Shown here: positions 7,606-54,000 of the stretch, piece after piece
How positions within the stretch are numbered: the stretch's first letter is position 1
Layout: every line of letters begins with the position of its first letter
Virus record (IMG/VR): IMGVR_UViG_3300047094_000227
Location: 1 to 64,000 of that record
Source of the DNA: an uncultured virus (IMG/VR IMGVR_UViG_3300047094_000227)
Taxonomy: Duplodnaviria; Heunggongvirae; Uroviricota; Caudoviricetes; Crassvirales
Strand: one strand, 5' to 3'
Length of the DNA: 64,000 bases
Translations under genes and position numbers: made by a program
Notes under the pieces: model-generated
Database searches by the model: none
What the model saw: only the letters and a program-made list of their open reading frames with translations
Told to the model about the DNA's origin: nothing

Positions 7606-7812
7606 TTATTTCTTCAATCCGTACTTAATCCACTTGTACCAGAAACGTTCGTGAAGATAGTATTGAACAGGCTTGTAGATAAGCTCAGCTACCCCAAAGG
7701 CAGCCCCCACCTTGATAGAATCACTGATCCACCACATTATTAGGAAACCTATTAAGGTGCTGATTATTCTATAGCTAATAGTCTTAGCTATGTGTCTCTT
7801 TACCAATGGCAT
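7606..7812 (-). CDS. DUF2061-like small membrane protein
   Basis: RHIAKTISYRIIST...YYLHERFW signature. Likely start at ATG 7812. Confidence 0.8.
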   Translation of the reverse strand: MPLVKRHIAKTISYRIISTLIGFLIMWWISDSIKVGAAFGVAELIYKPVQYYLHERFWYKWIKYGLKK

Positions 7813-7821
7813 ATGTATGAG

Positions 7822-7852
7822 CAAAACTATGTAAAAGATTTGATATAACCAA
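7822..7852 (-). promoter_or_regulatory. Bacteroidota-type promoter overlapped by an inverted repeat
   Basis: TTG (7852-7850), 20 nt, TAGTTTTG (7829-7822). Inverted repeat AAAAGATTTG/CAAATCTTTT at 7833-7859. Confidence 0.55.
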
Positions 7853-7860
7853 ATCTTTTT

Positions 7861-8229
7861 TTAGTAAGGGTTGTATGATTTCTCCTCTACAAACTCAGAG
7901 AGGTACTTAATATTAATTTCTTTTTTAATATGTGCTCTTTTATCATTCAATTTGTACACTGACCTAGCCAGATCAACAAATTCTGGGCCAAAACTACCAG
8001 CTCTTTCAAAGTCTCTGAGCAAGTCTTCCACATCCCAAAGAGCTTTATTTGTCTTAAGTAGGTCATCTACTAGTGGATCATGTAGAATTTCAGGGTCAAT
8101 CACTGTATTTAAGTAGTTTTTCTCAACAAAAACGTTCTTAAGTTTGTCTTTGTCTGTAATGTTCAAAGCCTTGATGGAAAGGATGGTCCATTTGTCCACA
8201 ACTTCCCCAATACTTACTTCTATTTGCAT
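7861..8229 (-). CDS. DUF6165-like protein
   Basis: IEVSIGEVVDKWTILSIK...LWDVED.LR...ARSVY.LND.RA..K..IN pattern. Confidence 0.8.
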   Translation of the reverse strand: MQIEVSIGEVVDKWTILSIKALNITDKDKLKNVFVEKNYLNTVIDPEILHDPLVDDLLKTNKALWDVEDLLRDFERAGSFGPEFVDLARSVYKLNDKRAHIKKEINIKYLSEFVEEKSYNPY

Positions 8230-8239
8230 AAAAATTTTG

Positions 8240-8270
8240 TTGTTTATTTACAACAAATATACTAATTTTG
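8240..8270. promoter_or_regulatory. Divergent Bacteroidota-type promoters
   Basis: Plus strand: TTG (8240-8242), 20 nt, TAATTTTG (8263-8270). Minus strand: TATATTTG (8261-8254), without a clear -33 element. Confidence 0.6.
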
Positions 8271-8288
8271 TTCAAAATAACCAGCATT

Positions 8289-11200
8289 ATGCCAAATAGT
8301 TATACTTTTTACAAACCTGAGATTAAGAAATACTTTGAACATCATGTTCCTACACATAAAAAGATATTAGATGTTGGTCCTGGACAGGGTACTTATGCTA
8401 AGCTTTTAGAAGATATTGGTTATGATATAGATGCTGTTGAAGCTTGGGCCCCTTACATTGAAGAATTCAAACTGAAAGATTGGTACGGAACAGTACACAA
8501 TGCAGACATCCGTGAGTTTGACTGGTCAGAATATGACTACATCATCCTAGGAGATATACTAGAACATCTTACAGCTGAAGAAGGTCAGAAGCTTATTACA
8601 AATATAACAGATGCAGGCAAAGAATGTTTAGTGGCTGTACCATATATGATGGCTCAAGATGGTGAAGAGTATGGTAATACATACGAAACTCATCTCCAGG
8701 AAGACCTAACTCACAGGGTAATGAAGACTAGATACCCCCAGCTAGTTGAACTTTATAGTAATCATTTGTATGGGTATTATACGAATAAGCATATAAAAGC
8801 TGAAAAAGCGTACGTTTTATATGCAAATGCATCTTATGTTCCTACTGTTAAAGCTTGTGTAGCTTCTATAAGAAGATATAGCGAGCTTCCCATCTACGTA
8901 TATTTATTAGATACTATTGCAGATATTCCTGGTGCTACAACAATTATGTGGAAGTCTAATCTACCAAAGCTTTCTATCAACAAATACATTGATAGAAGTG
9001 ATAAGAATGTCTATAGACTGTTGATAGAACGTCCAATGATTGTTAAAGATGCTCTATTGAACTGTGCTCATACAGTAGCTTATATAGACTCTGATAGTGT
9101 AGCCACAGAATACGTTGATAGCATATTTGATATGTATCCTAAAATGAACTATCCCTATTTTGTAGAAGGTATTTATGACTATCTACACATCAATGGTAGA
9201 GGTGGGGCTGATACTAGAGAAGATATGTCTACAACATTAGAAGCACCAGCATGTGAATTGTTTGGTGTCAATCAATATGTTAGACAGAGATATAGACAAA
9301 CAGGTTATTTTGTAGCCAACCATTACTGCTTTGACTTCTTAGATGAGTGGTACTGGATGTGTACTCATCCTAAAGTGATGGCTAACCATGAGTGGTATGC
9401 TCCATACCATGAAGAAACAATAGCTAACGTCTTATTGTGGAAGTGGGGAGTGTTAGATGGCCTACCTTACATCTACACCAATGCTAGCCTAGATAGAATA
9501 GAAGACATCTACGATAAGCTTGAGTGGGGAAAACACCACGGAAGCTGGTCAAGATTACCAGATAATAAACATAAGTTATTATTCTTACATGGAGAGAAAG
9601 ATCCAAAGGTGATGAATAAGATGATACAAACTCTAGAGAGTGCAGAGAAACAACTAAGTGTATTGTTCTTAGCTCCTCACTTATCTACAGGTGGTATGCC
9701 TGGTTTCCTCCTAAAAAGAGTGCAGGAACTACAACATTTCGTACGAATTTATGTAGTGGAGTACTCTGATTTCAGTCCTGTGTATGTTGTGCAGAAGAAT
9801 GAAATCAAGAAGCTTCTACCTGAAAATAGGATATTTACACTAGGAGAGAACAAGATGGAACTGATTGACATCATCAAAAAGAATAGTATTGATGTTGTAC
9901 ATGTAGAAGAAATGTTAGAAGGGTTTGAGAGCTTTAATCAAGTAAGCCCTCAGTTATTAGATGCATTGTATGCTCCTGATAGAACCTGGAGAATAGTTGA
10001 GACATGTCATAACGTTTGGTTTAATCCTGACGAACTTAAGAAGTATGAACCAGAGGCTTATGCTTTCTGTACACCATATCATTATAAGACATTTGCTAAC
10101 ATGAAGGCTTATAAAGATGTAATTGAATTCCCTATAGAAGATAAGAGACCAAGTATTGTACATAAGGTGGATGCTAAAGATGAGTTAGGATTTAATTTGA
10201 ATAGACCTAATGTTGTAAATGTAGGGCTATGGACCCCAGGAAAGAATCAGAAAGAAGGAATAGAGATAGCTAGAAAATATCCTAGTATGGACTTCCATTT
10301 TGTAGGTAACCAAGCTCCTAACTTTAAAGACTATTGGGAACCATTGATGGAAAACTTACCAAAGAATGTAACCATATGGGGAGAGAGAAGTGACATTGAA
10401 ACATTCTTAAAAGCTGCAGACATATTCATGTTTAACAGCACATGGGAATGTAATCCTCTTGTACTTAGAGAAGCAATCAGCTATGCACTTCCTGTAGTAG
10501 CTAGAAATCTTCCTCAGTATGAAGATATGTTTACTAGATACATCCTACCTATAGATAGTGATCTAGATAAAGTGAATGAAAAATATCCTGTTGGTGTTGT
10601 TTTTCATGACATACCAGATAACAGATTTGCACAAGATCATGTACACTTGTATAATAAAACGCTTGATATACCTATTGTTCCTAGAAAGAAAAAGAAAACA
10701 AAGGTGAATATATCTTTGCTATTTGTAGAGAGTCCCACCTTAGAAATTACAGGAAACAGTGATAGTAACTTCTTAATCAAATTCTTTGATGAGAAAGGGG
10801 TTTGCCATTATGAAAATACAATTACTAGCAACCGTTGGGTTAAGTTAAATAGACAATGGTTTACCAAGTGGACAGCTATGGTATGGGAAGATGGAGAACT
10901 CATCTTTGAAGAAACGTTAAACTATGAAGGTAAGCGTGTATACATCTGTATAGATAGTCAATCATTAGGTGATACTATTGCCTGGATACCGTATTGCAAT
11001 GAGTTCAGAAAGAAACACAACTGTCACGTTGTAGTGAGCACATACAAGAACTTCTTATTTGAGAAAGCGTATCCAGAGCTTGAGTTTGTCACTCCAGGAA
11101 GTGTAGTGGGCAACATCCACGGTCAGTATATTGTTGGCTGGAGATATGGTAAAGATAAAGAACCTGTGTTATGTAACACTATCCCTTTACAGAAAGCAGC

Positions 11201-11765
11201 TAGTAACATACTAGGGTTAGAATTTAAAGAGATTAGACCTAGATTTGCTTACGAGCCAGTTAAATTTAGTGGCAAAGATACATTTGTAACAATTGCTACT
11301 AATAGTACATCAGGATGTAAGTTCTGGACTAAGCAAGGTTGGCAAGCTTTGATTAACTATCTAGTTGATAATGGATACAAAGTGTACAATGTATCTAAAG
11401 AAAAAAATCCATTTGATAACTGTACGCAGATAGAAGACACTTCTATGGATAACACTATCAATATGATTTGGAACAGTAAGTTCTTTATAGGATTAAGCTC
11501 AGGGTTAAGCTGGTTAGCTTGGATGATGGGTAAGCAAACTGTAATGATTAGTAACTTTACAGAAGCAGATCATGAGTTTCAATCTAATTGTTTAAGAATT
11601 ACAGATACAAACTTATGTCATGGTTGTTGGAACAATCCTAACTTTAAGTTTGATAAAGGTGATTGGGATTGGTGTCCTGTACATAAAGGAACTAATAGAC
11701 AATTTGAATGTCATAAAGGTATATCTGCAGAAACAGTAATTAATAAAATAAAACACTTACTATGA
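8289..11765 (+). CDS. Multidomain enzyme: class I methyltransferase + GT-A + GT4 (GT-B) + TibC/Aah-like O-heptosyltransferase
   Basis: ILDVGPGQG (SAM binding); YIDSDS (DxD); PHLSTGGMP...KNQK...ECNPLVLREA (GT4); SLGDTIAWIPY...FIGLSSGLSWLAW...CHGCWN...WCP.H...QFEC (autotransporter heptosyltransferase with Cys cluster). ATG at 8289 preferred over the TTG at 8268. Confidence 0.85.
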   Translation: MPNSYTFYKPEIKKYFEHHVPTHKKILDVGPGQGTYAKLLEDIGYDIDAVEAWAPYIEEFKLKDWYGTVHNADIREFDWSEYDYIILGDILEHLTAEEGQKLITNITDAGKECLVAVPYMMAQDGEEYGNTYETHLQEDLTHRVMKTRYPQLVELYSNHLYGYYTNKHIKAEKAYVLYANASYVPTVKACVASIRRYSELPIYVYLLDTIADIPGATTIMWKSNLPKLSINKYIDRSDKNVYRLLIERPMIVKDALLNCAHTVAYIDSDSVATEYVDSIFDMYPKMNYPYFVEGIYDYLHINGRGGADTREDMSTTLEAPACELFGVNQYVRQRYRQTGYFVANHYCFDFLDEWYWMCTHPKVMANHEWYAPYHEETIANVLLWKWGVLDGLPYIYTNASLDRIEDIYDKLEWGKHHGSWSRLPDNKHKLLFLHGEKDPKVMNKMIQTLESAEKQLSVLFLAPHLSTGGMPGFLLKRVQELQHFVRIYVVEYSDFSPVYVVQKNEIKKLLPENRIFTLGENKMELIDIIKKNSIDVVHVEEMLEGFESFNQVSPQLLDALYAPDRTWRIVETCHNVWFNPDELKKYEPEAYAFCTPYHYKTFANMKAYKDVIEFPIEDKRPSIVHKVDAKDELGFNLNRPNVVNVGLWTPGKNQKEGIEIARKYPSMDFHFVGNQAPNFKDYWEPLMENLPKNVTIWGERSDIETFLKAADIFMFNSTWECNPLVLREAISYALPVVARNLPQYEDMFTRYILPIDSDLDKVNEKYPVGVVFHDIPDNRFAQDHVHLYNKTLDIPIVPRKKKKTKVNISLLFVESPTLEITGNSDSNFLIKFFDEKGVCHYENTITSNRWVKLNRQWFTKWTAMVWEDGELIFEETLNYEGKRVYICIDSQSLGDTIAWIPYCNEFRKKHNCHVVVSTYKNFLFEKAYPELEFVTPGSVVGNIHGQYIVGWRYGKDKEPVLCNTIPLQKAASNILGLEFKEIRPRFAYEPVKFSGKDTFVTIATNSTSGCKFWTKQGWQALINYLVDNGYKVYNVSKEKNPFDNCTQIEDTSMDNTINMIWNSKFFIGLSSGLSWLAWMMGKQTVMISNFTEADHEFQSNCLRITDTNLCHGCWNNPNFKFDKGDWDWCPVHKGTNRQFECHKGISAETVINKIKHLL

Positions 11766-12199
11766 TAATAGTATTATTTGGTCAACCTGCATCAGGTAAA
11801 ACAACTCTCGCTAAGAAATTTATAGCAGAGGGATTTCATCACATAGATGGAGATGAGTTAAGAGACCTTTTTAAAAATAAAGACTATAGTAGAGAAGGTA
11901 GAATTAAGAATTTAAATAGAGCTAGTGATATAGCTCATTATTTAGATAAGATAAAAAACTACAATGTAGTGCTCTCATTAGTATATCCTTATGAAGAAGC
12001 TAGAGAGTACCTTAGTAAATTAAACAGAGGTGTTAAATGGATCTACCTTATCTATGAAGAAGATAGAGGTAGAGATGACTTTAAAGTGAAAGACTTTGAG
12101 GTTCCTCACATGGATAATGTAGATTTAATTATTAATACTTCTAACACTTCTATTGAAGACAGTTTAGATAAAATCAAGCGTATATGCAGAATATTTTAG
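11762..12199 (+). CDS. cysC: Adenylylsulfate (APS) kinase-like
   Basis: P-loop GQPASGKTT; IDGDELR, YSREGR..N and FEVP motifs; ATGA-coupled to the upstream gene. Confidence 0.8.
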   Translation: MIIVLFGQPASGKTTLAKKFIAEGFHHIDGDELRDLFKNKDYSREGRIKNLNRASDIAHYLDKIKNYNVVLSLVYPYEEAREYLSKLNRGVKWIYLIYEEDRGRDDFKVKDFEVPHMDNVDLIINTSNTSIEDSLDKIKRICRIF

Positions 12200-12570
12200 C
12201 GGAGGGAAATCGTAAGACAGATGGGTATGCTATGTTTATAGGAAGATGGCAACCATGGCACGCTGGTCACAGATGGTTAATTGATCAACAATTGAACCAG
12301 GGAAAGAAGGTGTTGCTATGTGTAAGAGATGTTAAAGAGGATGAAAAGAATCCTTGGTCTGCGTATCAAATCATGATGAACTTAGCAGAAGCATTAAATG
12401 ATTTAATTGAAGAAGGTAAGGTGAGACTTATGATTATCCCTGACATTGAGTCTATAAACTTTGGAAGAGGAGTGGGTTATGATGTTATTGAGCACGTACC
12501 ACCACAAGAGATACATGATATTTCTGCTACACAAATTAGAGAACAAATGAAAAAAGAAGGTAAACTATGA
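12184..12570 (+). CDS. HxGH nucleotidyltransferase (cytidyltransferase-like superfamily)
   Basis: FIGRWQPWHAGH and ISATQIR motifs. Confidence 0.85.
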   Translation: MQNILAEGNRKTDGYAMFIGRWQPWHAGHRWLIDQQLNQGKKVLLCVRDVKEDEKNPWSAYQIMMNLAEALNDLIEEGKVRLMIIPDIESINFGRGVGYDVIEHVPPQEIHDISATQIREQMKKEGKL

Positions 12571-13433
12571 ATATAATATTTCAAATTAATGGTGGTATAG
12601 GCAAGGTGATTGCCTCCACAGCTGTGTGTGCTTCAATAAAAACTAAGTACCCTGATTGTAAACTAATTGTTGTCTCTGGTTATCCAGATGTATTTCTAGG
12701 TAATTCTAATGTAGATAGAGCTTATGGCTTTGGTCAACAAGCTTATTTCTATAAGGAGTATATTGAGAATCAAGAAGTGTTAGTGTTTGCTCACGATCCT
12801 TATTTAGAAACAAAGCACATCAAACAAGAAGAACATCTTATTGAAACTTGGTGTAAGCTATATGACTTACCTGTAACTAAAACTGTTGGGGAATTATTTC
12901 TTACAAAAAGAGAAATAGATTTCTTTAGTAAGAAGTTTGTATCTGATAAACCTATTTTGCTATTACAAACAAATGGTGGGACTGAATCTGATGTTAAATA
13001 CTCATGGGCTAGAGATATTCCTAGTTATGTAGTGGAGAATGTTATACATGAATTTAGAGAACAATATAACATTGTTCACATAAGAAGAGAAGATCAAATA
13101 AATTATGAAGGTACATTTCCTGTAACTGATACATTCAGAGCACTTCTTGTACTTATAAGTATAAGTGATAAAAGATTAATGATGGATAGCTTTGGTCAAC
13201 ATGCTGCAGCTGCTTTGAATAAACCATCCACTGTACTGTGGGTTGTGAACGTTCCTAATGTATTTGGATATGATATTCATACAAACATTACAGCTAATCC
13301 AGAAACAAGTTCCTCTGAACTAAGAAACTCTTATTTGAACAAATATAATATATCAGGTGAGCTTATAGAGTTTCCTTACAATAATGAGTCTGAAATATTT
13401 AATGTAAACGATGTAATTAAATCTTTAAAATAA
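12567..13433 (+). CDS. GT9-like (GT-B) glycosyltransferase
   Basis: GGIGKVI N-terminal loop; MDSFGQHAAAALNKPSTVLW resembles the GT9 DSGxxHxAxA motif. Confidence 0.7.
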   Translation: MNIIFQINGGIGKVIASTAVCASIKTKYPDCKLIVVSGYPDVFLGNSNVDRAYGFGQQAYFYKEYIENQEVLVFAHDPYLETKHIKQEEHLIETWCKLYDLPVTKTVGELFLTKREIDFFSKKFVSDKPILLLQTNGGTESDVKYSWARDIPSYVVENVIHEFREQYNIVHIRREDQINYEGTFPVTDTFRALLVLISISDKRLMMDSFGQHAAAALNKPSTVLWVVNVPNVFGYDIHTNITANPETSSSELRNSYLNKYNISGELIEFPYNNESEIFNVNDVIKSLK

Positions 13434-14254
13434 TGGAAAAAATATTCTATCAAAGTTCATTACCTAGGTCAGGATCTACATTGTTACAAAACATTCTTGC
13501 ACAGAACCCTGATATATATGCTACACCTACATCTGGTGTACTTGAATTAATATTTGGAGCACGTAATAATTATACTAATTCAGCAGAGTTTAAAGCTCAA
13601 GATGCTGAACTTATGAAAAAAGGATGGCAGGCATTTGCTAAATCTGGTATGGATGCTTTCTATAGTGCTATTACAGATAAGAAATATGTTATAGATAAAA
13701 GCAGAGGTTGGGGCATACACTATGATTTCTTACAATTTGTACATAATGAAGAACCAAAAATCATTTGTATGGTGAGAGATTTACGTGATATATTTGCATC
13801 TATGGAAGGTAACTTTAGAAAACATCCAGAGAAGCAATCTGATATTCTAGATTGGTCTAAAGGACAGGGAACCACCGTACCTAAGCGTATAGATATATGG
13901 GCATCACAACCTCCTGTAGGACTTGCCATTGAAAGACTTAGTGAGATATTTAGAACAGGAATTAATAACAAAATGTTATTTGTAAAGTTTGAAGACTTAT
14001 GTTTATATCCAGAATCTACAATGATTAAGATTTATGATTACTTAGGTGTACCATTTTATGAACATGACTTTGATAACATTGAACAAGTAACTAAAGAAGA
14101 TGATGAAATCTATGGTGCATTTGGTGATCACGTTATTCGTACAAAACTTGAACCTGTAAGAAGTAAAGCCAAAGAGTTATTAGGTAAGGACGTAACAGAT
14201 TGGATCTATACCAATTACAAATGGTTCTATGACACATTTAGATATAGTAAATAA
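13433..14254 (+). CDS. PAPS-dependent sulfotransferase
   Basis: 5'-PSB motif LPRSGSTLL; 3'-PB motif VRDLRDIFAS; KFEDL. Confidence 0.9.
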   Translation: MEKIFYQSSLPRSGSTLLQNILAQNPDIYATPTSGVLELIFGARNNYTNSAEFKAQDAELMKKGWQAFAKSGMDAFYSAITDKKYVIDKSRGWGIHYDFLQFVHNEEPKIICMVRDLRDIFASMEGNFRKHPEKQSDILDWSKGQGTTVPKRIDIWASQPPVGLAIERLSEIFRTGINNKMLFVKFEDLCLYPESTMIKIYDYLGVPFYEHDFDNIEQVTKEDDEIYGAFGDHVIRTKLEPVRSKAKELLGKDVTDWIYTNYKWFYDTFRYSK

Positions 14255-14687: not shown

Positions 14688-17600
14688 TTATTTATTTTTT
14701 AATTCTTCTAATTGTAAAGTTAATGAATCTACACAAGATGTCAAAATTTGTATACCCTTTGTTAAAATAGGTAATAATTTTGATGAATCAAATGTATAGT
14801 ATCCACTAAAGGTCATTTTTACTGATTCAGGTACTACGTCTTTAACTTGTTGAGCAATGAATCCTACTTGTCTTCCTTCTCCATTTTCTTTATTATCACT
14901 ATTGAATTCATAGAATGAAGGAACTAATTTGTTAATGTCACAAAGTTGATACTCAACAGGTTGAATGCAACACTTTAATCTAGCATCAGATGTATTCTTA
15001 ACAATTATTCCACTAGAGTTTGCACAAATTGCACCTCCTCCAGATAAATTACCTGCAGCAAAACAACTAGCGTGGTTTACAAATGAGTTCATTGACATTA
15101 TGCTACATCCACTTACAGTACTTCCTGCTCCCATGGTCATGTTAAAACAACCACCAGTAACAGCAGAAGCTGCAGCTGTTGTGCTGTTAGATTGTCCAGC
15201 AAGAATACCACTCATTGCTGAACTCGCGAAGTTTTGACATCCAGCAACAATACCTGACTTATCAGTACTCATTCCTGCAGCTATAGTATTGTTACTTCCA
15301 CCTCCAATGAAACCCCAACCACCACAAGCCCTATTGGTTTGTCCACCTCCAACAAATGAATAACCAGGTAATGTACCATAAGTTCCACTAGCAGTGGTAT
15401 TACTAGCACCGCCTGCAATAGCTGAACAATTAGCACTTGCAGTATTAGCAAAACCTCCTATTATAGCTGAATTACATCCATTTGCACCACCAACGTCACC
15501 ACCACCAATAAACGACTTTGCTCCAAAAGCGTTGTTGGAAGTACCAGCAACTACTCCAGAAAAATCACCAAATGTTCCATTCTGACATCCACCACCAACA
15601 TAAGAAAATGGATTTGAAGCAGTGTTTCCATATCCACCACTAACTGTTGAACCACATGCATTTGCATTATTACCTCTACCACCTCCAATAAATGCACATC
15701 TTCCATATGCTGAAATAGTATTACAAAATCCCCCACCTATTGTTCCATAGTCACCACAAACTCTATTACAAGCTCCACCCCCAACTGTTTCTCCATAAGT
15801 ACCAAAAGGATAAGCACTATGCGTATAGTTATTATATCCACCACCAATGAATGAACATCTGCCCTGATTACTGTTAAAATTACCACCAGCGATTACAGAA
15901 TACTCGCCAAATGTATTGTTACCATAACCACTTAAAGAACCAGAGAAGTTACCCATTGCCATGTTACCAGCTCCACATCTTTCTGTAGAACCAGTTCCCA
16001 TTCCTTGTACAATGATGCTTGAGCCACCACCACCACCAGCAGTTAAACATAATTTACCAAATGAATCAAAGCTTATGCTACAACCCATTCCGTAAAATGC
16101 ACTGAATGATGTGATTGCTAAATTATTAACCATGTGTGTACATGCTAATGAATTCATTAAACCACATCCAGACACAGTTGCATAGCTTGCCTGAGCAGAG
16201 TTAGAATTTCCTCCAGTTACAGTTGCACCTACAGCATATGCACTAATACTGTTACTAGATCCTCCAGATATAGTACCTTGAACTGCAGACATTCCTAAAG
16301 TATGAGAAGTACCACCACCAATTGTACTACCAGCTGAATTCATACTAATTGTGTGGAACCCACCGCCTGCAATTACACTATCACCAGAATAACTACTAAT
16401 TGTATTCATGCTACCACCACCAATTACAGAACTAACAGCAGATGTATCAATGTTATTACTAGATCCTCCACCTATCGTAGAACATGATGCATTTGTTTGT
16501 ATTCTGTTACATCTTCCACCACCAATTGTAGAACATCCTGAATTTGCAAATATTTTATTGAATTGACCACCAGAGATTGTTGAATGAGATGGATCAACAC
16601 AGTTAGTTTCACCACCACCAATGAATACGTTACTTCCAGCATTCACACAGTTAAAGAAACCCCCTGCAATAGTAGAATACATTCCAGAGTTACTATTAAA
16701 TCCACCACCAGCAATAAGTGATCCATTGCTAGAACTATTATTGGTAGTACCACTTAAAGCACTAGCAAAAAATCCACTTGCAACGTTACTACATCCATTA
16801 CCTATAATTGAACAACATCCAGTGCCAGCAACCATTACACCACCGCCACCAGCTGTATAAGCAATAAGCTCACCCAGAGGTCCTGCACACACTGCACATC
16901 CACCTATTGCAGCATTACTTAAATTAGGTTGAACAAAACAATTAGACATGAATGAACATGCTAAACTGTTTGATAAACCACATCCAAATACACCAGAATA
17001 ATTTCCCATTGCAGTATTACCTGAACCTCCTAGTACTGCTGAAAAGAATCCATTAGCACTATTATTGCTACCACCAACTACCACTCCAGATGTTCCTGCA
17101 GCTCCGTTACCTAATCCACCACCAACAAATGAAAATTCTCCAGTAGCATTATTAAGTTCACCTCCTACTACAGAACTACAGTTTCCTGTTGCTGTATTAC
17201 TAGCCCCACATCTTACAGAAGATAATATACCATCTCCAAGAATAATAACAGCACTAGAACCAACATTCACACCACTAGATCCAGAAGATCCAGATGTACC
17301 ATTAGATCCTGCAGCTCCTTCAGCTCCTGATGTACCACTAGTTCCAGTTGTACCACTTGTTCCAGTTGTACCACTAGTTCCGTTTGAGCCATTAATACCA
17401 CTTGATCCACTTGTTCCAGAAGTACCAGTAGTACCGCTTGTGCCAGTGGTGCCTGATGTACCATTAATACCTGACGTACCAGCAGTGCCAGAAGAACCGC
17501 TAGTACCTGTAGTTCCAGAAGTACCGTTTGATCCATTAACTCCTGAAGTTCCAGAGGTACCAGTTGTACCTGATGTACCGTTTATTCCACTAGTTCCACT

Positions 17601-20600
17601 TGTTCCTGTTGTGCCAGATGAACCACTTGTACCAGTGGTACCTGAGGTTCCAGTTGTTCCAGAAGTTCCTCCTGTACCATTAGTTCCAGATGTACCACCT
17701 GTACCGTTTGTACCTGAAGAGCCTGAAGAGCCTGATGTACCAGTAGTACCTGAAGTACCACCAGTTCCATTAGTAGCTGAAGTTCCAGAAGTTGCTGACG
17801 TACCACTAGTTCCATTACTACCACTAACACCAGAAGATCCTGATGTTCCTGTAGTACCAGATGTTCCACTTGTTGCACTAGTTCCACTAGTACCTGTTGT
17901 ACCACTGGTTCCAGTTGTGCCACTTGTTCCACTTGTACCACCAGTTCCATTAGTACCACTAGAACCTGAAGTTCCACTTGTACCAGATGTACCTCCAGTT
18001 CCATTAGTTCCTGAACTTCCTGATGTACCAGTGGTACCAGAAGTTGCAGATGAGCCAGATGAACCAGAAGAGCCAGATGTTCCTGTTGTACCAGAACTTC
18101 CACTTACACCACTAGACCCTGAAGTACCAGTGGTACCGCTTGTTCCTGAAGTTCCGCTTGTTCCAGAAGAACCTGAAGAACCTGAGTTTCCACTAGTACC
18201 TGAAGTTCCAGAAGGAGCAGTAAAAGTTGTTTGAACGTAAGAATAATTGCTTGTACCCTCTGTATAAAAAGTTACATTAACACTTGACCCACCACTATGG
18301 GTTGCGTATATTTGACAATAAAGTCTATCTGTTGCAACCAATGCTGTTTGACCTAAAAATAAATCTGTAAAAAATTCCTTGATAACACCAGTGTTTAATG
18401 CTTCTGTGTCAAGGTTTGTAGTGCCTAACAAAGTAGACACTCCACCAACTGTATATTTATATAATTCTACATCTATACCTATAGTAGTATTTGAATTAAC
18501 AGAGATGTGATTAACAAAAGCCCATAATCCTGATGGTATGTTTGTAACACCAGGAACACCAGAGTCTGTTGCAAATTTTGCAATCAAAGTTCTACTAGAG
18601 CCAGGAACTGTTACAGTTACAGTCTGTTCAGTTCCACCTGTTGCAGTTGGAGACAATTGTTTATATGTTGGAGAACCAAAAGCACTATTTGTATTTGCAG
18701 ATTGATTCATGTAATAAACCTGACCACCAGAAATACCATTAAGTCCAGATGTACCTGCAGTACCTGAAGACCCACTTGTACCTGTTGTACCACTAGAGCC
18801 ACTTGTACCTGTTGTACCAGACGTACCACTAGTTCCTGTAGAACCACTGGTTCCACTTGTACCACTTGTGCCTGAGCTTCCTGAAGTTCCAGAAGTACCA
18901 GAGCTACCTGATGTGCCACTGGTTCCACCAGTTCCATTAGTTCCACTAGAACCACTTGTTCCTGTTGTACCTGAAGTGCCACCTGTTCCATTAGTTCCAC
19001 TAGATCCAGAACTACCACTTGTACCAGATGATCCACTTGTACCAGTAGTTCCACTAGAGCCTGAAGTACCTGTAGATCCACTAGTTCCACTAGTTCCACC
19101 AGTACCATTAGTACCGCTAGTTCCACTAGTACCACTTGTACCAGTTGTGCCTGAAGATCCACTTGTGCCATCAATAGCACTTGTACCTGAAGTACCACTT
19201 GTTCCAGTGGTTCCACTTGTTCCGTCTACACCAGTAGTTCCACTTGTGCCAGACGTACCTGTTGACCCACTAGTACCACTAGTACCAGTTGTGCCAGAAG
19301 TTCCGTTAGTACCATCTATACCAGTTGTACCTGAGGTACCTGAAGTACCACCACTACCTGACGTTCCAGTGGTACCAGATGTACCACTTGTGCCATCTAT
19401 TGCAGAAGTTCCTGAGGTACCAGTAGTACCAGCAGTTCCTGAAGAGCCACTTGTTCCACTAGTTCCAGATGTGCCTGTTGTACCAGATGTTCCGCTAGTT
19501 GCAGAAGATCCTGAGGTTCCACTTGTGCCACTAGTTCCATTTGTACCATCAATTCCTGATGTACCACTTGATCCACTTGATCCACTAGTACCACCTGTAC
19601 CATTGGTAGCAGATGTTCCACTTGAACCAGATGTACCGCTTGTACCTGTTGTACCGCTTGTACCTGTTGTACCACTAGTTCCTGAGGTTCCAGTTGTACC
19701 AGATGTTCCATCAATAGCTGATGTTCCACTTGTACCAGCTGTTCCACTAGTTCCAGTTGTGCCACTTGTACCGCTAGTTCCATGTGTTCCAGATGTTCCA
19801 CTTGTACCACTGGTTCCTGTTGTTCCAGCAGTTCCAGAAGAGCCACTAGTCCCAGAAGATCCTGAAGTACCAGTAGTGCCAGATGTTCCAGAAGAACCAT
19901 CTCCTCCAGAAGCACCATCTAAGTTAACTATCCAGCTAGTATATGTACCACTACCAACTGTTCTAGTTGGAGAGCCAAAAATTAACTCACCATTAACTGG
20001 ATTATAGAATACCACTTCACATTCTTGGAAGTTGTTTATATCATGAGCTATTACAATAGATTGAGCTACTGTATATGCAAGTTGTGTTCCTACAACAATG
20101 GCCCCATTACTACCTAAATTAAATGATGATGTAGAAGTTGTTGCAAATTGGTCACCTGTTTCTCCAGAAGTACCTGATGAACCAGATGTACCATTACTAC
20201 CATCAGCACCACTGGTTCCACTAGTTCCACTAGTTCCAGATGTGCCATCTATTGCTGATGTTCCAGATGAGCCTGAAGACCCACTAGTTCCTGAAGTACC
20301 GTCTGTTGCACTTGTACCACTTGAACCTGAAGTTCCACTTGTACCAGATGTACCTCCACTACCACCAGCACCATCAATACCTGAACTACCACTAGTTCCA
20401 GATGTACCAGAGGTACCTGAAGTACCTGAAGTACCTGCACTTCCAGATGTACCATCATCACCAGGAGAACCAGAAGCAATTACTTCCCAAAGGTTATAAC
20501 TACCACTACCTACAGATTTGGTTGGTGTAAAAACCAACTGTCCTGTAGCAGGATTGTAAGAAACAACCTGACCAAAAATATAGTCAGTACTATCTGCTAT

Positions 20601-20672
20601 TAGCTGGATAAATTGTCCAGTGATAAAAGATAGACCTGTTTGAGTGGTTATTGTTATGTTAGAATAAGCCAT
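14688..20672 (-). CDS. Tail fibre/spike: Gly-Thr-Ser repeat shaft, GGxxN beta-roll repeats, C-terminal intramolecular chaperone (peptidase S74-like)
   Basis: Three GTS tracts; many (I/V)GGGxxN repeats; TSDARLK...GFIAQQV...P and a terminal coiled coil. Confidence 0.85.
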   Translation of the reverse strand: MAYSNITITTQTGLSFITGQFIQLIADSTDYIFGQVVSYNPATGQLVFTPTKSVGSGSYNLWEVIASGSPGDDGTSGSAGTSGTSGTSGTSGTSGSSGIDGAGGSGGTSGTSGTSGSSGTSATDGTSGTSGSSGSSGTSAIDGTSGTSGTSGTSGADGSNGTSGSSGTSGETGDQFATTSTSSFNLGSNGAIVVGTQLAYTVAQSIVIAHDINNFQECEVVFYNPVNGELIFGSPTRTVGSGTYTSWIVNLDGASGGDGSSGTSGTTGTSGSSGTSGSSGTAGTTGTSGTSGTSGTHGTSGTSGTTGTSGTAGTSGTSAIDGTSGTTGTSGTSGTTGTSGTTGTSGTSGSSGTSATNGTGGTSGSSGSSGTSGIDGTNGTSGTSGTSGSSATSGTSGTTGTSGTSGTSGSSGTAGTTGTSGTSAIDGTSGTSGTTGTSGSGGTSGTSGTTGIDGTNGTSGTTGTSGTSGSTGTSGTSGTTGVDGTSGTTGTSGTSGTSAIDGTSGSSGTTGTSGTSGTSGTNGTGGTSGTSGSTGTSGSSGTTGTSGSSGTSGSSGSSGTNGTGGTSGTTGTSGSSGTNGTGGTSGTSGSSGTSGTSGSSGTSGTSGTSGSTGTSGTSGTTGTSGSSGTTGTSGSSGTAGTSGLNGISGGQVYYMNQSANTNSAFGSPTYKQLSPTATGGTEQTVTVTVPGSSRTLIAKFATDSGVPGVTNIPSGLWAFVNHISVNSNTTIGIDVELYKYTVGGVSTLLGTTNLDTEALNTGVIKEFFTDLFLGQTALVATDRLYCQIYATHSGGSSVNVTFYTEGTSNYSYVQTTFTAPSGTSGTSGNSGSSGSSGTSGTSGTSGTTGTSGSSGVSGSSGTTGTSGSSGSSGSSATSGTTGTSGSSGTNGTGGTSGTSGTSGSSGTNGTGGTSGTSGTTGTSGTTGTSGTSATSGTSGTTGTSGSSGVSGSNGTSGTSATSGTSATNGTGGTSGTTGTSGSSGSSGTNGTGGTSGTNGTGGTSGTTGTSGTTGTSGSSGTTGTSGTSGINGTSGTTGTSGTSGVNGSNGTSGTTGTSGSSGTAGTSGINGTSGTTGTSGTTGTSGTSGSSGINGSNGTSGTTGTSGTTGTSGTSGAEGAAGSNGTSGSSGSSGVNVGSSAVIILGDGILSSVRCGASNTATGNCSSVVGGELNNATGEFSFVGGGLGNGAAGTSGVVVGGSNNSANGFFSAVLGGSGNTAMGNYSGVFGCGLSNSLACSFMSNCFVQPNLSNAAIGGCAVCAGPLGELIAYTAGGGGVMVAGTGCCSIIGNGCSNVASGFFASALSGTTNNSSSNGSLIAGGGFNSNSGMYSTIAGGFFNCVNAGSNVFIGGGETNCVDPSHSTISGGQFNKIFANSGCSTIGGGRCNRIQTNASCSTIGGGSSNNIDTSAVSSVIGGGSMNTISSYSGDSVIAGGGFHTISMNSAGSTIGGGTSHTLGMSAVQGTISGGSSNSISAYAVGATVTGGNSNSAQASYATVSGCGLMNSLACTHMVNNLAITSFSAFYGMGCSISFDSFGKLCLTAGGGGGSSIIVQGMGTGSTERCGAGNMAMGNFSGSLSGYGNNTFGEYSVIAGGNFNSNQGRCSFIGGGYNNYTHSAYPFGTYGETVGGGACNRVCGDYGTIGGGFCNTISAYGRCAFIGGGRGNNANACGSTVSGGYGNTASNPFSYVGGGCQNGTFGDFSGVVAGTSNNAFGAKSFIGGGDVGGANGCNSAIIGGFANTASANCSAIAGGASNTTASGTYGTLPGYSFVGGGQTNRACGGWGFIGGGSNNTIAAGMSTDKSGIVAGCQNFASSAMSGILAGQSNSTTAAASAVTGGCFNMTMGAGSTVSGCSIMSMNSFVNHASCFAAGNLSGGGAICANSSGIIVKNTSDARLKCCIQPVEYQLCDINKLVPSFYEFNSDNKENGEGRQVGFIAQQVKDVVPESVKMTFSGYYTFDSSKLLPILTKGIQILTSCVDSLTLQLEELKNK
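17270..18210 (-). repeat. Gly-X-Y (GTS/GTT/GSS) coding repeat tract
   Basis: Degenerate 9-nt periodicity; boundaries approximate. Confidence 0.9.
18740..19910 (-). repeat. Gly-X-Y (GTS) coding repeat tract
   Basis: Degenerate 9-nt periodicity; boundaries approximate. Confidence 0.9.
20160..20460 (-). repeat. Gly-X-Y (GTS) coding repeat tract
   Basis: Degenerate 9-nt periodicity; boundaries approximate. Confidence 0.85.
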
Positions 20673-20701
20673 TTATATTGATTTTATATTTTTATATTTT
20701 A

Positions 20702-23700
20702 TTAACATGATGAACAAGCACTTGTAACTGTAGCTAGAGAGTTTCCATTAATTACAGATACTGATACAACTTGACCTCCAAAAGATACATACCATGTACC
20801 TGTTGCTGCAGCTGCAAATATTGCACCTGTAAATGTAGTGCTGGTACAGAAAGTAGAAGCATTACCTGTTACAGAACCAGTTGCAGTTGGAAGACAAGCG
20901 TCTTCAGGAGCTCCACCAAATCCAATAGTATTACTAAAGTTTGCAGCAGTCGTTGTTGTAGTTGTTGTTGTTGGAATTGGTCCAGAACATGAAAAACAAC
21001 TACCTGATGCAGTTAATAATGTTGAACCTCCACCTGTAGAAGTAAATTCTCTACTATCAATTCCATCAGAAACATAATAAGTACCTGCTGGTATTGATGT
21101 TGCATTGGCTGCATTTAAAGAAGTGCAATCACAAAGAGTTGTTCCTCCGCTATATGCATAAGTAGGTAAGTTATAAGCACCTGAAGCTGTACAAGCAAGT
21201 GCACTATTAAGGTCAACGTACAAAGTAGGTGCTGGAGGTATACAACTTTCTATACTTGTTATTATACCAGATTCAGCAATTCCAAATGGATCACCATCAA
21301 GACCTATATAATATGTGCCTGGAGGATTTGAATATGTAAAAGGATTTGTTAAATATGGATCCTCATACAATTGTGTTCCTACTTGAATAGGTAATGATGC
21401 TACATATAATGGAATAAAAGGACCAACACCATCACAAGGACTAAAAGGACCAAAAAGACTTGGGCTAATACCACTAGCCGTAACTTCAATACCAAGAGGA
21501 CAAGTTACATAGTTTGTAAGTTCTCCATTAACATCAACTTCTACTGCATAGTCAACACCTAATCTTGTTAATTTTCTCCATCCCACTGAACCAATAAATG
21601 GTGTTGTTAAACTTGGGCTATCATAAAAAATCATTCCTACAATAGGAACAGTATACCCAGGTAAAGCATAAACAGTACTTGTTGTAGTTGAACCATCACA
21701 AGCCAATGCTGCACTACCTGTAGCTGCATTATCAATTACATATGCTACAGGACCAGCTGTTGTTGTACTTGTAGTTGTAGTTGTAGCTTGTGCAGGAGGA
21801 AGTGTAATTGTATTACTACTTGTACCGTATAATAATGTAGAGCTACCAGATGTACCTGATGTGCCACTGGTACCAGAAGTACCACTAGTTCCACTTGTGC
21901 CACTAGATCCTGATGTACCTGAGGTTCCGTTAGTACCATCTATTCCACTTGTTCCAGATGTGCCAGATGAACCAGCTGTACCACTTGAGCCTGAGGTGCC
22001 ATCTATACCAGATGTTCCTGTTGTGCCTGACGTTCCACTAGTACCTGATGTTCCGTCTACACCTGAAGTGCCAGATGTTCCACTAGTTCCACTTGAGCCT
22101 GAGGTGCCAGTAGTTCCTGAAGAACCAGAAGTTCCTGAGGTGCCACTAGTTGCTGAGGTACCACTAGTTCCAGTTGTACCACTAGTACCAGATGAACCTG
22201 AAGTGCCAGAAGTTCCGTCAATTCCAGAAGTTCCATCTGTACCACTTGTACCGTCAGTACCACTAGTTCCGTCAACTCCACTTGTACCTGAGGTTCCATC
22301 TATGCCAGAAGTACCGTCAGTACCAGATGTTCCATCAGTTCCTGATGTTCCGTCTGTACCAGAAGTACCACTTGAGCCAGAAGTTCCTGAAGTGCCATCA
22401 ATACCACTAGAGCCTGATGTACCGCTTGTGCCTGAAGTACCAGTGCTTCCACTTGTACCACTTGTTCCGTTAGTACCATCAATACCAGAAGTACCAGAAG
22501 TTCCACTAGAACCACTAGTTCCAGTTGTTCCACTAGATCCTGACGTACCGCTTGTTCCAGAGGTTCCACTTGTACCTGATGAGCCATCAGTACCAGAAGT
22601 ACCAGATGTGCCTGTAGTTCCAGAAGTGCCAGAAGTGCCATCTATTCCAGATGTACCACTTGTACCTGAGCTACCATCACCGCCAGACGCACCATCAAGG
22701 TTTACTATCCAACTTGTATATGTGCCTGAACCCACTGTTCTAAAAGGGGCACCAAAACTTAATTCGCCTGTTAATGGGTTATAAGCTGTAACCTCACACT
22801 CTTGGAAGTTATTAGCATCATAAACCACAATTATTGATTGAGCCACTGAGTAAGCTAAACCTGTAGCAACTGTTAATGTACCAGAGTTACCTAATGTAAA
22901 GCTATCAGTAGATGTTGTTCTATATTTATCACCTTGTTCTCCAGAAGTACCACTTGTCCCACTAGTGCCATCTATTCCAGATGACCCTGATGTTCCTGTA
23001 GACCCTGATGTTCCATGGCTACCGTCTGTACCACTTGTACCACTAGATCCAGAAGTACCTGTTGTACCACTAGATCCTGATTCACCGCTAGTACCACTTG
23101 TTCCAGTAGTTCCAGATGTTCCGTTACTACCATCACTTCCTGAGGTTCCTGAACTACCACTTGTACCTGTAGTGCCACTAGTACCACTTGTTCCATCAAC
23201 TCCAGAAGACCCACTAGTTCCAGAAGATCCACTTGTTGCTGATGTTCCACTTGTACCGTGTGTTCCGCTAGTACCAGATGTACCAGTCGTACCTGAAGTT
23301 CCTGATTCACCACTAGTTCCACTAGTACCGTCAGATCCTGATGTACCAGATGTTCCATCAACACCACTTGTTCCAGCAGTTCCTGATGATCCAGACGTAC
23401 CTGTTGTTCCTGAAGTACCACTTGTACCTGTAGATCCACTTGTACCTGATGTACCGCTTGTTGCAGATGTTCCAGAAGTTCCACTTGTTCCATCTATTCC
23501 ACTTGTACCAGAGGTACCATCTTCACCTGAAGATCCGCTTGTTCCAGCAGTTCCACTAGTTGCAGAAGTTCCACTTGTACCATCTACACCTGAAGTGCCA
23601 CTGGTCCCTGTAGTGCCTGATGTTCCTGATGTACCGTCTATTGCAGAAGTGCCACTTGTTCCAGAGGTTCCACTTGTTGCAGATGAACCACTAGTACCAC

Positions 23701-24295
23701 TTGTACCGTCAGTTCCACTTGTACCATCAATGCCAGATGTACCTGAGCTTCCAGCAGTTCCTGAAGAACCTGCTGATCCATTTACACCATTTGTTCCATT
23801 AATACCTGACGTACCAGAGGTGCCACGTGTTCCTGATGTACCACTAGTACCTGTAGTTCCACTTGATCCAGCAGCACCGTTCACTCCACTTGTACCGCTT
23901 GTACCACTTGTACCTGAGACACCAGTAGTACCAGAAGTTCCAGAAGTACCACGTGTACCAGACGTACCATCTACACCACTTGTACCTGAAGTTCCAGTTA
24001 AACCACTAGTACCTGATGTACCACGTGTTCCTGAGGTTCCAGAAACCCCACTTGTACCAGAGGTTCCATTGATACCATTTGTACCATCAGAACCAGAGGT
24101 TCCACTAGTACCTGAAGTACCAGCTGAACCACTACCGCCTCCTCCATTACCAATAGCTTGATCAATTTTTTCTAAAGCTGTCTGAATGGAATCATTAGTG
24201 TTGATACCTGTATAAACAAGATTAGCACCCTCGTAAAATACGCAGGTGCTGTTAAGTATGACTGGGCAAGGAGTTGCAGAACATGTAACGTTCAT
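20702..24295 (-). CDS. Fibre-like virion protein: Cys-containing N-terminal domain, GTS repeats, poly-Thr linkers and four Cys-capped C-terminal modules
   Basis: ORF track, 1197 aa; shares an internal ~85-aa domain with the downstream fibre. Confidence 0.8.
21840..22680 (-). repeat. Gly-X-Y (GTS) coding repeat tract
   Basis: Degenerate 9-nt periodicity; boundaries approximate. Confidence 0.9.
22935..24125 (-). repeat. Gly-X-Y (GTS) coding repeat tract
   Basis: Degenerate 9-nt periodicity; boundaries approximate. Confidence 0.9.
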
Positions 24296-51010: not shown

Positions 51011-54000
51011 TTATTTATATTTACTTAGCCAGCCACCATTTTTCTTTTGTGAAGCTCCTGCTATTCCAGCAACTCCTACTGCAGGAAGAAGAGCTTTATA
51101 TATATTTGGATTGTTCATATCAAACATTCCATTGTTACCTACAGCTGATTTAAGTTGTTTATTTGTTGGAAACACTATTTCATATGCGTCATTCCAAGGT
51201 CTAACGTTTGTTACATTAGGGTGTTTATTAGCAATAGCAGCATCATATCCAGTCAATCTTTCTTCAATAGGTATTTCTCCTTTCCAATTTGCTGTTCTAT
51301 TAAAATTAAACAAATCTCTTTTACCTCCTTCATTAACTAATTGTTCAGAACTAATTGGATTATTAGCTTGACCATATAATTCATAAACAGTAGGAGTATG
51401 TTCTTTTCCTCCTATAAATGAACGTGAAGAATAAGCATAACTATCAGCAACTGTTTTTGATGGTGTTGTATATATTCCAACTCCTGAATATCCAGCATCT
51501 CCTCTTTGAAATAATGCAGGGTCAAAAACATTAAACCTTTCTGGAGCTCCATGGTATAACATAATTGGAGAACCATCTGGATTTACTAACTTAGAGTTAC
51601 CAAATGCCTTTTTAAAGTTTTGACTTTGCTGTTGTACAAACTGTTCAGGAGTTCCTTTAAATTCACTACCATCAGGATTTTTCATCCATACATCATTGGC
51701 TTTAGTAGAGTTTTCTATATTAATATACTCCTCCATTAACTTTTTATTCTTAGGAATTTCAGGATTCCATTTAGCCCAGTCTATTTCAGATACTTTTGTT
51801 GATTTATTTTTAGAAACTTCTTTATATCCTTTTAACCAATCTTTCTTTAATATCTTACCTTCAGTTGTAGGTATATCTCTTTGAGCTATTTGACTCCATT
51901 CTTTTTTACCATATCTTTTTCCCCAGTCAGAAGCTGCTCTTGGTACCTCAGCAATAAATCCTTGTCCATACTGATCTGCTATATCAAATCTAGGACTATA
52001 GTAAGCTTTACTAAATTGTCTAGTAGTATTAAAGTTACCTATACTAGTGGGAGTTACATTTTGTTTAGCTCTAAACAGACCACTCTGTACTGCATCTTCC
52101 ATTCCTTCTTTTCCAAGCCCTCTATACATCATTCCTTCTGTAGGTTTAAATGCATAAGGATTTAGTTTATATGCATTAGAAAGTAATCCAGACTCCATTG
52201 ATTGAGCAACTTTTCCTGGAACTTTCAAAGCACTTCCTAAAGGATCTATTCCTAATGCTCCTGTACCAGCAGCTAATGCCAAAGATGTTGCAATAGCTTT
52301 TGGGTCTCTTGCTGCAATTGATTCTCCTAAAGCATCTGCTAAGACACCTACATATGTAGCTGGATTTAAGTAATCATCAAACATTTCTCCCACTCCACCA
52401 ACACTCTCAGGAAACAATCTAGCTTTTTCTGCTATATTAAAACTCCCAGGAACATTTACATCTCCTTTTGTTTTTCTTTTAGCTGCTCTTTCAGCTATAA
52501 TTTTTTCATCACGTTCTTTGGTTCTTTTTTGAGTTTCTTTATTTATTCTAGCATTCTCTTCTTGTTCTTTCTTTGTAAGAGGTCTTATAGGAGCAGCAAC
52601 TCTTGTAGCATCTTGACGCATTGGTTCAGGATATTTATCTAACCAACCACCACCTTGCATCATTGGATATTCTGTAACCTTATCACCATCAAACTTGTAA
52701 TCTTCTCCAGGATACATCATTTGTACATCTCCCATATCAGATACACCAAGTACAGGATAGTCAACTCCCTGCATTGTTATTTCATTAGAATCTATCTCTG
52801 TAATCTCACCTGGATGAGCCCACTGTCCTCTGTCATCTTTAATTACAGAACCATTCTTACTTATACTCTTAGGTTTGAAGTCTAGTCCTTCTTGGTAGAA
52901 TTTCATCTCTTTACCATTCTGAGCTTGGTCCATAGGAACTTCACCTTCATTCTTAGCTAGCTTATTCATTAAATATAATAAGTCTTTATCAGAATATCTT
53001 TGTTTAAGTCTATCTAACATTAACCCTGGATTTTTAGGAGCCTCAACTCCTTTTAAATTTCCTGGTGCTTTAGCTTTTTCAGATGGTAGATATTTTGTTT
53101 TTCCAGATGAATCTGATTTATACATCTGTTTATTTAACTCTGGAGATTTATATAATTCATTTAACATCTCAGGGGTCATATCTTTAACTCCTGATTTAGT
53201 TACATCCCATATTCCTTTCTTGTTTGCCAAATATCTAAGAGCCATTATGTCTGCTCTAACTTCTCCAATCAAATCATCATGCATTGATGTACTAGAAAGT
53301 TGTTGTTCTTCGTCAGCAAAATCTTTTATTTTACTTTGTCTCCAATCACCAACTGAAGAATATATAGGTTTGTTATCTGCAGTTGTTGGTATAGGGCTTA
53401 CCATATCTTGATACAAAGCATTTGCATCTCCCTTTCTATTTTTCAAAGCGTTATGGTTTAACATTATCATCACATTTCTAGGCTGTACTGATAATATTTC
53501 TTTTTCCATTGGATGAAACATCTCATGAGCAAATGCTAAATCCTTAGGTGCATTTAAATACTCATTAGGATTACCCATATTTATTATGTTTCCTTTATCA
53601 AATCCTGTCCTATCAAGTGGTTTGTAAGTATAACTTAAATTATTAATTTTATTAATTGCTTCTTTACTAATTTGAGCTGATTTATCTTTAATTCCAAAAT
53701 TTCCTTTATCATAAAGATTTTCTTTAAATCTGTCAGATGCATAATAACTTTTTGCAAAGTCTTTAACACTCTGTTCTTCTGCATCAGTTGCACCATACAA
53801 TTTCTTTCCATCCTGAGCACTTGCTTTAGTCTTCTTAGTATACTTACCATTAGCAGGAGCTGAACCAGCTGTGCGTGCGTATGTGAATCCTACAGCACCT
53901 GGCATACTTCCACCCATAGCAAACTGACCCCCCCATGCAGGAGAATAGTTTCTACCTTTTGTATTATAACCATCTCCTACAAAGCCAGGACCTACAGATG

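Follow-up and report, generated by a model that had tools for sequence, protein, structure and literature searches.

The window analysed here comprises the first 64,000 nt of a 75-kb, ~65% complete record of an uncultured Crassvirales phage (IMG/VR IMGVR_UViG_3300047094_000227). The element in question is a small nucleotidyltransferase gene, hereafter NT, lying in a cassette of five + strand genes arranged head to tail from 8268 to 14254, whose ends overlap or abut in the list of open reading frames (ORFs). The first gene (8268..11765) encodes a multidomain glycan-tailoring protein of 1165 aa, with a methyltransferase (Pfam Methyltransf_23/11), a GT1 region (Glycos_transf_1, 49 bits) and a GT9-like C-terminus (Glyco_transf_9, 18.7 bits, under the cut-off), and its stop overlaps the start of the gene for a short adenylyl-sulfate (APS) kinase of 145 aa (11762..12199). 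NT (12184..12570) encodes an HxGH (HIGH-type) nucleotidyltransferase of 128 aa, our candidate mini sulfate adenylyltransferase, and shares 16 bases with the kinase gene, whose TAG stop lies at 12197-12199. There follow a probable glycosyltransferase of 288 aa (12567..13433) with a faint likeness to GT9 heptosyltransferases, and a sulfotransferase of 273 aa (13433..14254), the presumed user of 3'-phosphoadenylyl sulfate (PAPS), which starts 860 bases downstream of NT. The 288-aa protein had no Pfam match, matched NCBIfam heptosyltransferase models only at E=0.014-0.095 and matched phrog_8954 at E=4.8e-9. By family and fold the last gene product is a sulfotransferase (Sulfotransfer_3 66.6 bits, Sulfotransfer_1 49.9 bits, phrog_27463 E=1.7e-43), with a weak NCBIfam match to NoeE (E=5.4e-9) that stays far under the cut-off.

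The original prediction held that an APS kinase and a sulfotransferase are encoded here with no Sat or CysD visible, and that the gene overlapping cysC encodes a 128-aa HxGH nucleotidyltransferase with SATQIR. The profile matches to APS_kinase and Sulfotransfer_3 bear out the first point, and the coordinates, overlap and motifs of NT were confirmed. The absence extends across the whole 75-kb record, in which a six-frame PF01747 search for Sat matched only NT itself (10.1 bits) and a PF01507 search for CysD/CysH-type proteins gave no match.

The product of 11762-12199 is an APS kinase by profile, fold and conserved catalytic and APS-site residues. Its match to Pfam APS_kinase (PF01583) scores 36.4 bits against a cut-off of 21.1, with relatives at 58-70 bits, and the solved structures closest to it by sequence are the APS kinases 2yvu and 8a8h. 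The structural model has a predicted local distance difference test (pLDDT) score of 92.2, and the ten top-ranked Foldseek chains are all APS kinases, the best being 7yq1 (E=1.6e-9, TMq 0.82). When aligned with canonical CysC, the P-loop, DGDxxR, R47, N50, P76, R81, R102 and P115 are invariant. What the window kinase does not have is a lid segment of ~19 residues found in canonical CysC, and for this reason it does not reach the equivalog model TIGR00455 (32.4 bits, cut-off 138.7).

NT belongs to the HIGH (cytidylyltransferase-like) superfamily by profile, by its Rossmann-like fold and by its HxGH and ISxTxxR motifs. It scores 23.5 bits with CTP_transf_like (PF01467; cut-off 21) and 29.6 bits with TIGR00125 (cut-off 27.7), and 128 aa is an ordinary size among the smallest members of this superfamily. 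W-H-A-G-H occupies residues 25-29 and I-S-A-T-Q-I-R residues 113-119. When 35 family members are aligned, H26 and R119 never vary, conservation of G28, H29, S114, T116 and I118 is 90% or higher, and the family as a whole is marked by GRWQPxHxGH, RDxxxDxxNP, IPDIxSxxYGRGVGY and ISATxIR. The AlphaFold model has a mean pLDDT of 90.5. Translation starts at ATG 12184 or at the in-frame ATG 12232 (M17); the first 14 residues are modelled with little confidence (block mean pLDDT 53), and alignments with cellular homologues begin at residue 15. The gene is real, as 6269 homologues and a well-modelled fold attest. A search of the ESM Atlas with NT returned only viral 'cytidylyltransferase-like' clusters. 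A prediction of the kinase and NT complex gave a score of 0.00, which is no verdict and was used neither for nor against binding.

The nearest named relatives of NT raise the idea that it is a nicotinamide mononucleotide (NMN) or nicotinic acid mononucleotide adenylyltransferase of NAD salvage, with a ribosylnicotinamide-type kinase as its partner, as in NadR. Its best NCBIfam matches are archaeal/NadM NMN adenylyltransferases (NMNATs), namely TIGR01527 and NF002243, its best PDB sequence matches are archaeal/NadM NMNATs with a GRxQPxHxGH motif, the top Foldseek match of its model is the NMNAT 1ej2, and some sources name its homologues NMNAT or nicotinamide riboside kinase through automatic annotation. 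These matches, however, reach only 31.2 bits against an equivalog cut-off of 181.2 for TIGR01527 and 35.8 bits against 127 for NF002243, and the alignment places ~24 residues fewer in NT between the fourth strand and ISxTxxR. Genomes that carry NT also have their own enzyme for the NMNAT step: a marine group III archaeon (G030) has a true archaeal NMNAT (185 bits) besides NT, and NadD was over its cut-off in all five NT-bearing bacteria tested. The partner kinase, moreover, is APS-kinase-like by Pfam, residues and fold, and the setting described below is one of sulfation, not NAD metabolism. The NMN adenylyltransferase role that the original prediction had kept as an alternative is weakened accordingly, and we regard it as very unlikely.

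The NT family is widespread. We found 6269 homologues of 70-224 aa at E<=0.001, 1101 cluster representatives in a library clustered at 50% identity, and 542 matching stretches in viral contigs. Cellular copies occur in genomes labelled Marinimicrobia/Fidelibacterota, Flavobacteriales and other Bacteroidota, Acidobacteriota and Nitrospiraceae, as well as Patescibacteria, Omnitrophota, marine group III archaea and Thaumarchaeota, some of them on contigs of 0.4 to 4.5 Mb. The original prediction suggested examining neighbourhood or fusion with cysC, and both were analysed. Linkage was counted in 80 viral and 80 cellular NT loci with hidden Markov models built from the kinase and NT alignments. 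A kinase lay on the strand of NT in 78 of the 80 viral loci, within 300 nt in 69 and farther in nine (seven at ~2.3-2.6 kb, two at 318-403 nt); in the other two the upstream DNA was too short to tell. Among the cellular loci the kinase was present, on the strand of NT, in 71 of 80 (fused to NT in 17, within 300 nt in 46 and farther in eight) and absent from nine.

Fusion gives the same picture. When the 48 longer of 150 listed NT representatives were scanned with Pfam, 31 joined APS_kinase and NT in one chain, 24 in the order kinase-NT and seven in the order NT-kinase, and in 11 of the 31 the kinase part scored 140-231 bits and is a full canonical CysC. A further 108 NT-matching proteins are at least 225 aa long, and most of them carry PF01583. 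The phage family PHROG 10255, annotated 'kinase', is a kinase-NT fusion found in Xylella, Xanthomonas and Stenotrophomonas phages. Individual examples, annotated 'kinase' or hypothetical, are Xylella phage Salvo gp32 (locus L001, 5578-6324) and its counterpart at locus L002 (5593-6324).

The distribution of NT against the established enzymes is the second line of evidence. To our knowledge only two enzyme types, Sat and CysDN, are known for sulfate activation. In a genome scan that used a closer alignment of 11 NT sequences, we considered 50 NT-bearing cellular genomes, of which five had Sat, four had CysD and 41 had neither; the last group includes G017, where NT sits on a 0.97-Mb contig, and G034, with a 4.5-Mb chromosome. 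Within the order of genome G050 (labelled Flavobacteriales; 151 genomes) eight genomes carry NT, 77 an APS kinase and 110 CysD. All eight NT genomes have the kinase next to NT and neither CysD nor Sat, whereas all 69 kinase-positive genomes without NT have CysD (Fisher p=4.8e-11, uncorrected for phylogeny). The phylum of G017 (121 genomes) shows a similar division: its three NT genomes all have the kinase and none has Sat or CysD, while at least one of these two enzymes occurs in 70 of the 79 kinase-positive genomes without NT (p=0.0025). Three genomes labelled Marinoscillum carry an unlinked NT and a canonical CysC, again with no Sat or CysD. APS kinases depend on a supply of APS, for which NT is the sole candidate consistently present in these genomes.

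Gene context points in the same direction. Sulfotransferases of four Pfam families (Sulfotransfer_1/3, Sulfotransfer_2 and Sulfotransfer_5) were found beside the kinase-NT pair, and CysQ-like Inositol_P genes and polysaccharide export genes lie near it. A sulfotransferase of the window type is encoded alongside kinase and NT in 32 of the 80 viral loci, the 288-aa protein likewise accompanies the cassette in 32 of the 80, and a Sulfotransfer_2 enzyme is found additionally in L078 and L080. We examined the context of 30 cellular loci, scanning part of each, and there the pair sits in polysaccharide clusters (L163, L153 and L106). L163 and L153 share the order CysC, NT, a protein of 236-244 aa, a CysQ-like Inositol_P gene, a flippase and then sulfotransferases, two in L163 and one in L153, the latter with one intervening ORF unscanned. 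L106 runs from a polysaccharide export protein and a Wzz-like protein through the short kinase, NT, an aminotransferase and a Sulfotransfer_5 enzyme to a flippase/glycosyltransferase. The conserved 236-244-aa protein of the two Flavobacteriales-labelled loci (L163 6474-7181, L153 6522-7253) gives weak DeoC/TIM-barrel hints and no clear family. Another small companion is a HAD phosphatase of 112-117 aa resembling the PNKP 3'-phosphatase (L077 4387-4722, L080 4654-4989, L121 6372-6722), encoded between kinase and NT or just after NT; speculatively, it might pull the reaction as a pyrophosphatase, or act on the 3'-phosphate of 3'-phosphoadenosine 5'-phosphate.

A different activity could be argued from the glycosyltransferases of the cassette. 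NT might activate a sugar phosphate, as an HldC-like heptose-1-phosphate adenylyltransferase or a cytidylyltransferase for glycerol-phosphate or another substrate, on behalf of the GT9-like and GT1 enzymes. The GT9-like (heptosyltransferase-like) domains would suit this, small HIGH transferases of the size of NT include sugar- and polyol-phosphate cytidylyltransferases, and in locus L030 a PfkB kinase and an epimerase are encoded immediately before NT. Related phage operons tell against it. In L020, L037 and L041 the stretch between kinase and NT holds a cupin, a small HAD-like protein with weak or no Pfam match, an HldC-like transferase distinct from NT (48-61 bits with PF01467), a PfkB kinase and an epimerase. 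The transferase step of the heptose route is thus covered by a separate gene, and NT comes as an extra one. This insert spans 2403-5016 in L020; L037 and L041 were scanned with Pfam, and L029, L039 and L044 were assigned to the same type by ORF layout only. L030, where no APS kinase was seen at first, was rejected as support for an HldC role, since its contig ends within this very layout: in the other loci of the type the APS kinase lies ~2.5 kb upstream, a distance beyond the end of the L030 contig. Activation of a sugar phosphate would explain neither the fusion with canonical CysC nor the complementarity with Sat and CysD. The HldC-like option of the original prediction thus loses ground, and we consider the sugar-phosphate role the least probable of the readings weighed here.

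Taken together, the linkage to APS kinase, the fusion in both orders, the complementarity with Sat and CysD and the sulfotransferase and CysQ-like neighbours are best fitted by an ATP-sulfurylase role. NT is probably a so far unrecognised mini sulfate adenylyltransferase (ATP sulfurylase) that uses the fold of HIGH nucleotidyltransferases, an activity that we predict from comparison. In a literature search covering titles and the beginnings of abstracts, with subscription journals outside its coverage, the family was not found described as a sulfurylase, and what that search returned on ATP sulfurylase, APS kinase and cytidylyltransferase together concerned canonical enzymes only.

Several observations weigh against this assignment, and the first of them concern Sat itself. 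In sequence and fold NT is nearest NMNAT and phosphopantetheine adenylyltransferase (PPAT), not Sat. A VIA comparison of the model placed PPAT first (Z 10.8, rmsd 2.9, 111 aligned) and an archaeal NMNAT at Z 10.3, and no Sat chain is among the Foldseek and VIA matches listed for NT, although a weaker Sat match is possible. The ATP-sulfurylase profile PF01747 stays under its cut-off of 24.3 in every search and every family member scanned, with 14.1 bits for NT and 19-22 bits for the best members. Aligning the NT family with five Sat domains by hhalign paired only 37 C-terminal columns (61% probability), that is, the C-terminal helix carrying ISxTxxR. NT does have an HxxH-type motif, its HxGH (H26, H29), set in an NMNAT-like GRWQPWHAGH; Sat sequences read QTRNP(L/M)HRAH. 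The Sat motif GRDHAG is not present as such; the NT family has instead a near-invariant YGRGVGY (G94, R95, V97, G98, Y99), which hhalign does not align with GRDHAG. With a match to Sat at superfamily level only, NT is not a reduced Sat; it makes up a small family of its own within the HIGH superfamily, and the sequences lead us to claim homology between the two at that level and no closer. The original prediction had placed Sat in the superfamily of NT on the strength of HxxH and SxTxxR-type motifs, which holds at that level, and had called NT a stripped-down ATP sulfurylase. The function so named gains support from linkage, fusion and complementarity and stands as a prediction, but descent by reduction from Sat does not stand, given the sub-threshold PF01747 score.

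The distribution also has its exceptions. Nine of the 50 NT-bearing genomes have Sat or CysD as well, and three of the five Sat matches among them are Nitrospiraceae-labelled Sat-CysC fusions with a degenerate GRDHAG. These fusions (L166, L167 and L168, from G037, G040 and G035 respectively) are 582-588 aa long and read GWDYAS, VEPNYA or GQDYAS in place of GRDHAG, two of them with altered HxxH contexts. In the Nitrospiraceae-labelled genomes NT is unlinked to the kinase and adjoins a Glycos_transf_3 gene. Locus L126 has cysD-like and cysN-like genes beside an NT-CysC fusion, which would be redundant if NT makes APS. Absence calls rest on metagenome-assembled and single-amplified genomes of unstated completeness, and in the phylum of G017 nine of the 79 CysC-positive genomes without NT also have neither Sat nor CysD, and background noise is therefore real. 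The NT-positive genomes of each lineage may, furthermore, be a single clade, in which case the p-values overstate independence.

Nor is a sulfotransferase visible at every locus, the window type being unseen in the examined DNA of 48 of the 80 viral loci. It was not seen in the examined DNA of L049-L056 and L060, which are contigs of 109-321 kb and thus of jumbo-phage size, nor in that of the short contigs L047 and L067. Loci of this jumbo-phage type carry a DNA methylase downstream of the pair instead; in the four scanned with Pfam (L049, L060, L047 and L067) an N6_N4 DNA methylase lies just downstream and no sulfotransferase was found. The fusions of Xylella and Stenotrophomonas phages lie among genes of DNA metabolism (MazG-like, topoisomerase, DNA ligase), with no sulfotransferase nearby.

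Such loci bring up a third possibility, that NT works with the APS kinase on sulfonucleotides without forming APS, as a regulatory or salvage adenylyltransferase or as the maker of some other adenylate that can be phosphorylated at its 3' position. PPAT and dephospho-CoA kinase work by this logic, a HIGH transferase making an adenylate whose 3'-OH a P-loop kinase phosphorylates, and PPAT is the enzyme that VIA ranked first. Linkage and fusion speak for cooperation and leave the substrate unspecified, the CysDN-like genes of L126 could supply APS to the adjoining fusion, and the fusions and jumbo-phage loci with no visible sulfotransferase would be accommodated. This role fails, however, to explain why Sat and CysD are missing from genomes with NT and CysC and present in those without NT. 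It also sits poorly with fused kinases that are canonical CysC, at up to 231 bits, and with neighbours that are sulfotransferases and CysQ-like genes. On these grounds we think it unlikely, and return to sulfate adenylylation as the preferred function of NT.

Under that function the cassette would work as follows. NT would bind ATP through HxGH and ISATxIR, like its relatives, and sulfate, its presumed substrate, would attack the alpha-phosphate to give APS and pyrophosphate. Precedent for this chemistry exists in Sat sequences, which carry HxxH and SG(S/T)xxR motifs, and the sub-threshold PF01747 matches of the NT family cover the regions of these two motifs. The short kinase, presumably acting in physical cooperation with NT, would phosphorylate the 3'-OH of APS to give PAPS, also pulling the unfavourable first step. 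The sulfotransferase at 13433-14254 would then use PAPS on a glycan built by the neighbouring glycosyltransferases, and this putative acceptor glycan might be carried by the collagen-like fibres of the phage itself.

Comparison with known systems helps to define what would be new. Sat and the bifunctional PAPS synthases carry out the reaction proposed for NT, and the pathway logic is shared too, the adenylyltransferase being coupled to APS kinase or joined with it in one chain, in either domain order; the Sat-CysC fusions of Aquifex (2gks) and human PAPSS1 (1x6v) were themselves seen among the structural matches of the kinase model. Sat shares with NT the broad HIGH/HxxH superfamily and a C-terminal motif of SxTxxR type. 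It differs in its length of ~350-400 aa and an N-terminal beta-barrel domain that NT does not have; members of the NT family are 110-130 aa long and carry YGRGVGY where Sat has GRDHAG, with PF01747 under its cut-off and a profile alignment confined to the last helix. The archaeal/NadM NMNATs (TIGR01527, NF002243; 1ej2, 1f9a, 2qjo) resemble NT in GRxQPxHxGH, a Rossmann-like core and ISxTxxR; NT is ~40 residues shorter, has the family-specific RD and YGRGVGY motifs, and is set among APS kinases and sulfotransferases. CysDN, the GTPase-coupled ATP sulfurylase, is apparently replaced by NT, to judge from their complementary distribution among CysC-bearing genomes, yet the two have no homology, CysDN being of unrelated fold (a PAPS_reduct-type CysD and a GTPase CysN). 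The rhizobial nodPQ genes, with nodH/noeE, are a dedicated PAPS supply inside glycan-tailoring clusters. Like them, the kinase-NT pair would be a private sulfate-activation module beside a sulfotransferase and glycosyltransferases; NodPQ, however, is a paralogue of CysDN/CysC, while the module proposed here is phage-borne and would begin with the small NT.

Other genes of the window touch on this module to varying degrees. Upstream on the - strand lies a small DUF2061 membrane protein (7606..7824; PF09834, 56 bits), a frequent companion of NT in phages: it was present in 50 of the 80 viral loci, mostly directly downstream of NT, and in one case fused to NT (P0163). None of the chromosomal loci examined from Marinimicrobia and Flavobacteriales had it, and no functional description of it was found in literature listings. 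A DUF6165 protein (7861..8229, - strand; PF19662, 38.2 bits) is a variable cassette member, seen in eight of the 80 viral loci. Adjoining the other end of the cassette, a collagen-like, Ser/Thr-rich fibre of 1994 aa (14688..20672, - strand; Collagen 289 bits) ends in a C-terminal S74 chaperone domain (Peptidase_S74, 44.6 bits) and is a possible acceptor of the sulfated glycan. A second Ser/Thr-rich fibre with collagen repeats (1197 aa, Collagen 296 bits) lies with it within 14688-24295 on the - strand, and both are candidate acceptors. The remaining features noted are also on the - strand. Giant ORFs of 2781 and 3923 aa occupy 24449-44567 and have no Pfam match at E<=0.001, and a 1029-aa protein (51011-54100) has an ART-PolyVal ADP-ribosyltransferase domain at residues 841-992 (52.8 bits). 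Between 55792 and 63906 lie matches to a crAss-type muzzle protein (131 bits), tail ring protein 1 and tail ring protein 2. By these structural genes the phage is crAss-like, from which we presume a Bacteroidota host.

On balance, and a shade more guardedly than for the activity of NT alone, we favour a wider reading in which NT represents a third family of ATP sulfurylases, a HIGH fold of 110-130 residues that would have arisen from an NMNAT-like branch and not from Sat. With its lid-less kinase of 145 residues it would be the smallest known PAPS synthase, and it would replace Sat or CysDN in genomes labelled SAR406/Marinimicrobia, Flavobacteriales, Acidobacteriota, candidate-phyla bacteria and marine archaea. 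In many phages it would serve as a sulfate donor supply of their own for sulfating glycans, perhaps on fibres. If this is true, sulfate activation would extend to many genomes currently interpreted as lacking it, including those of abundant marine lineages and some of ~1 Mb, and the CysC, CysQ-like and sulfotransferase genes of NT-bearing genomes would make sense. Phages would hold a complete private PAPS supply of only ~270 residues, pointing to glycan sulfation on virions or at the host surface, and biotechnology would gain a very compact PAPS-generating module.

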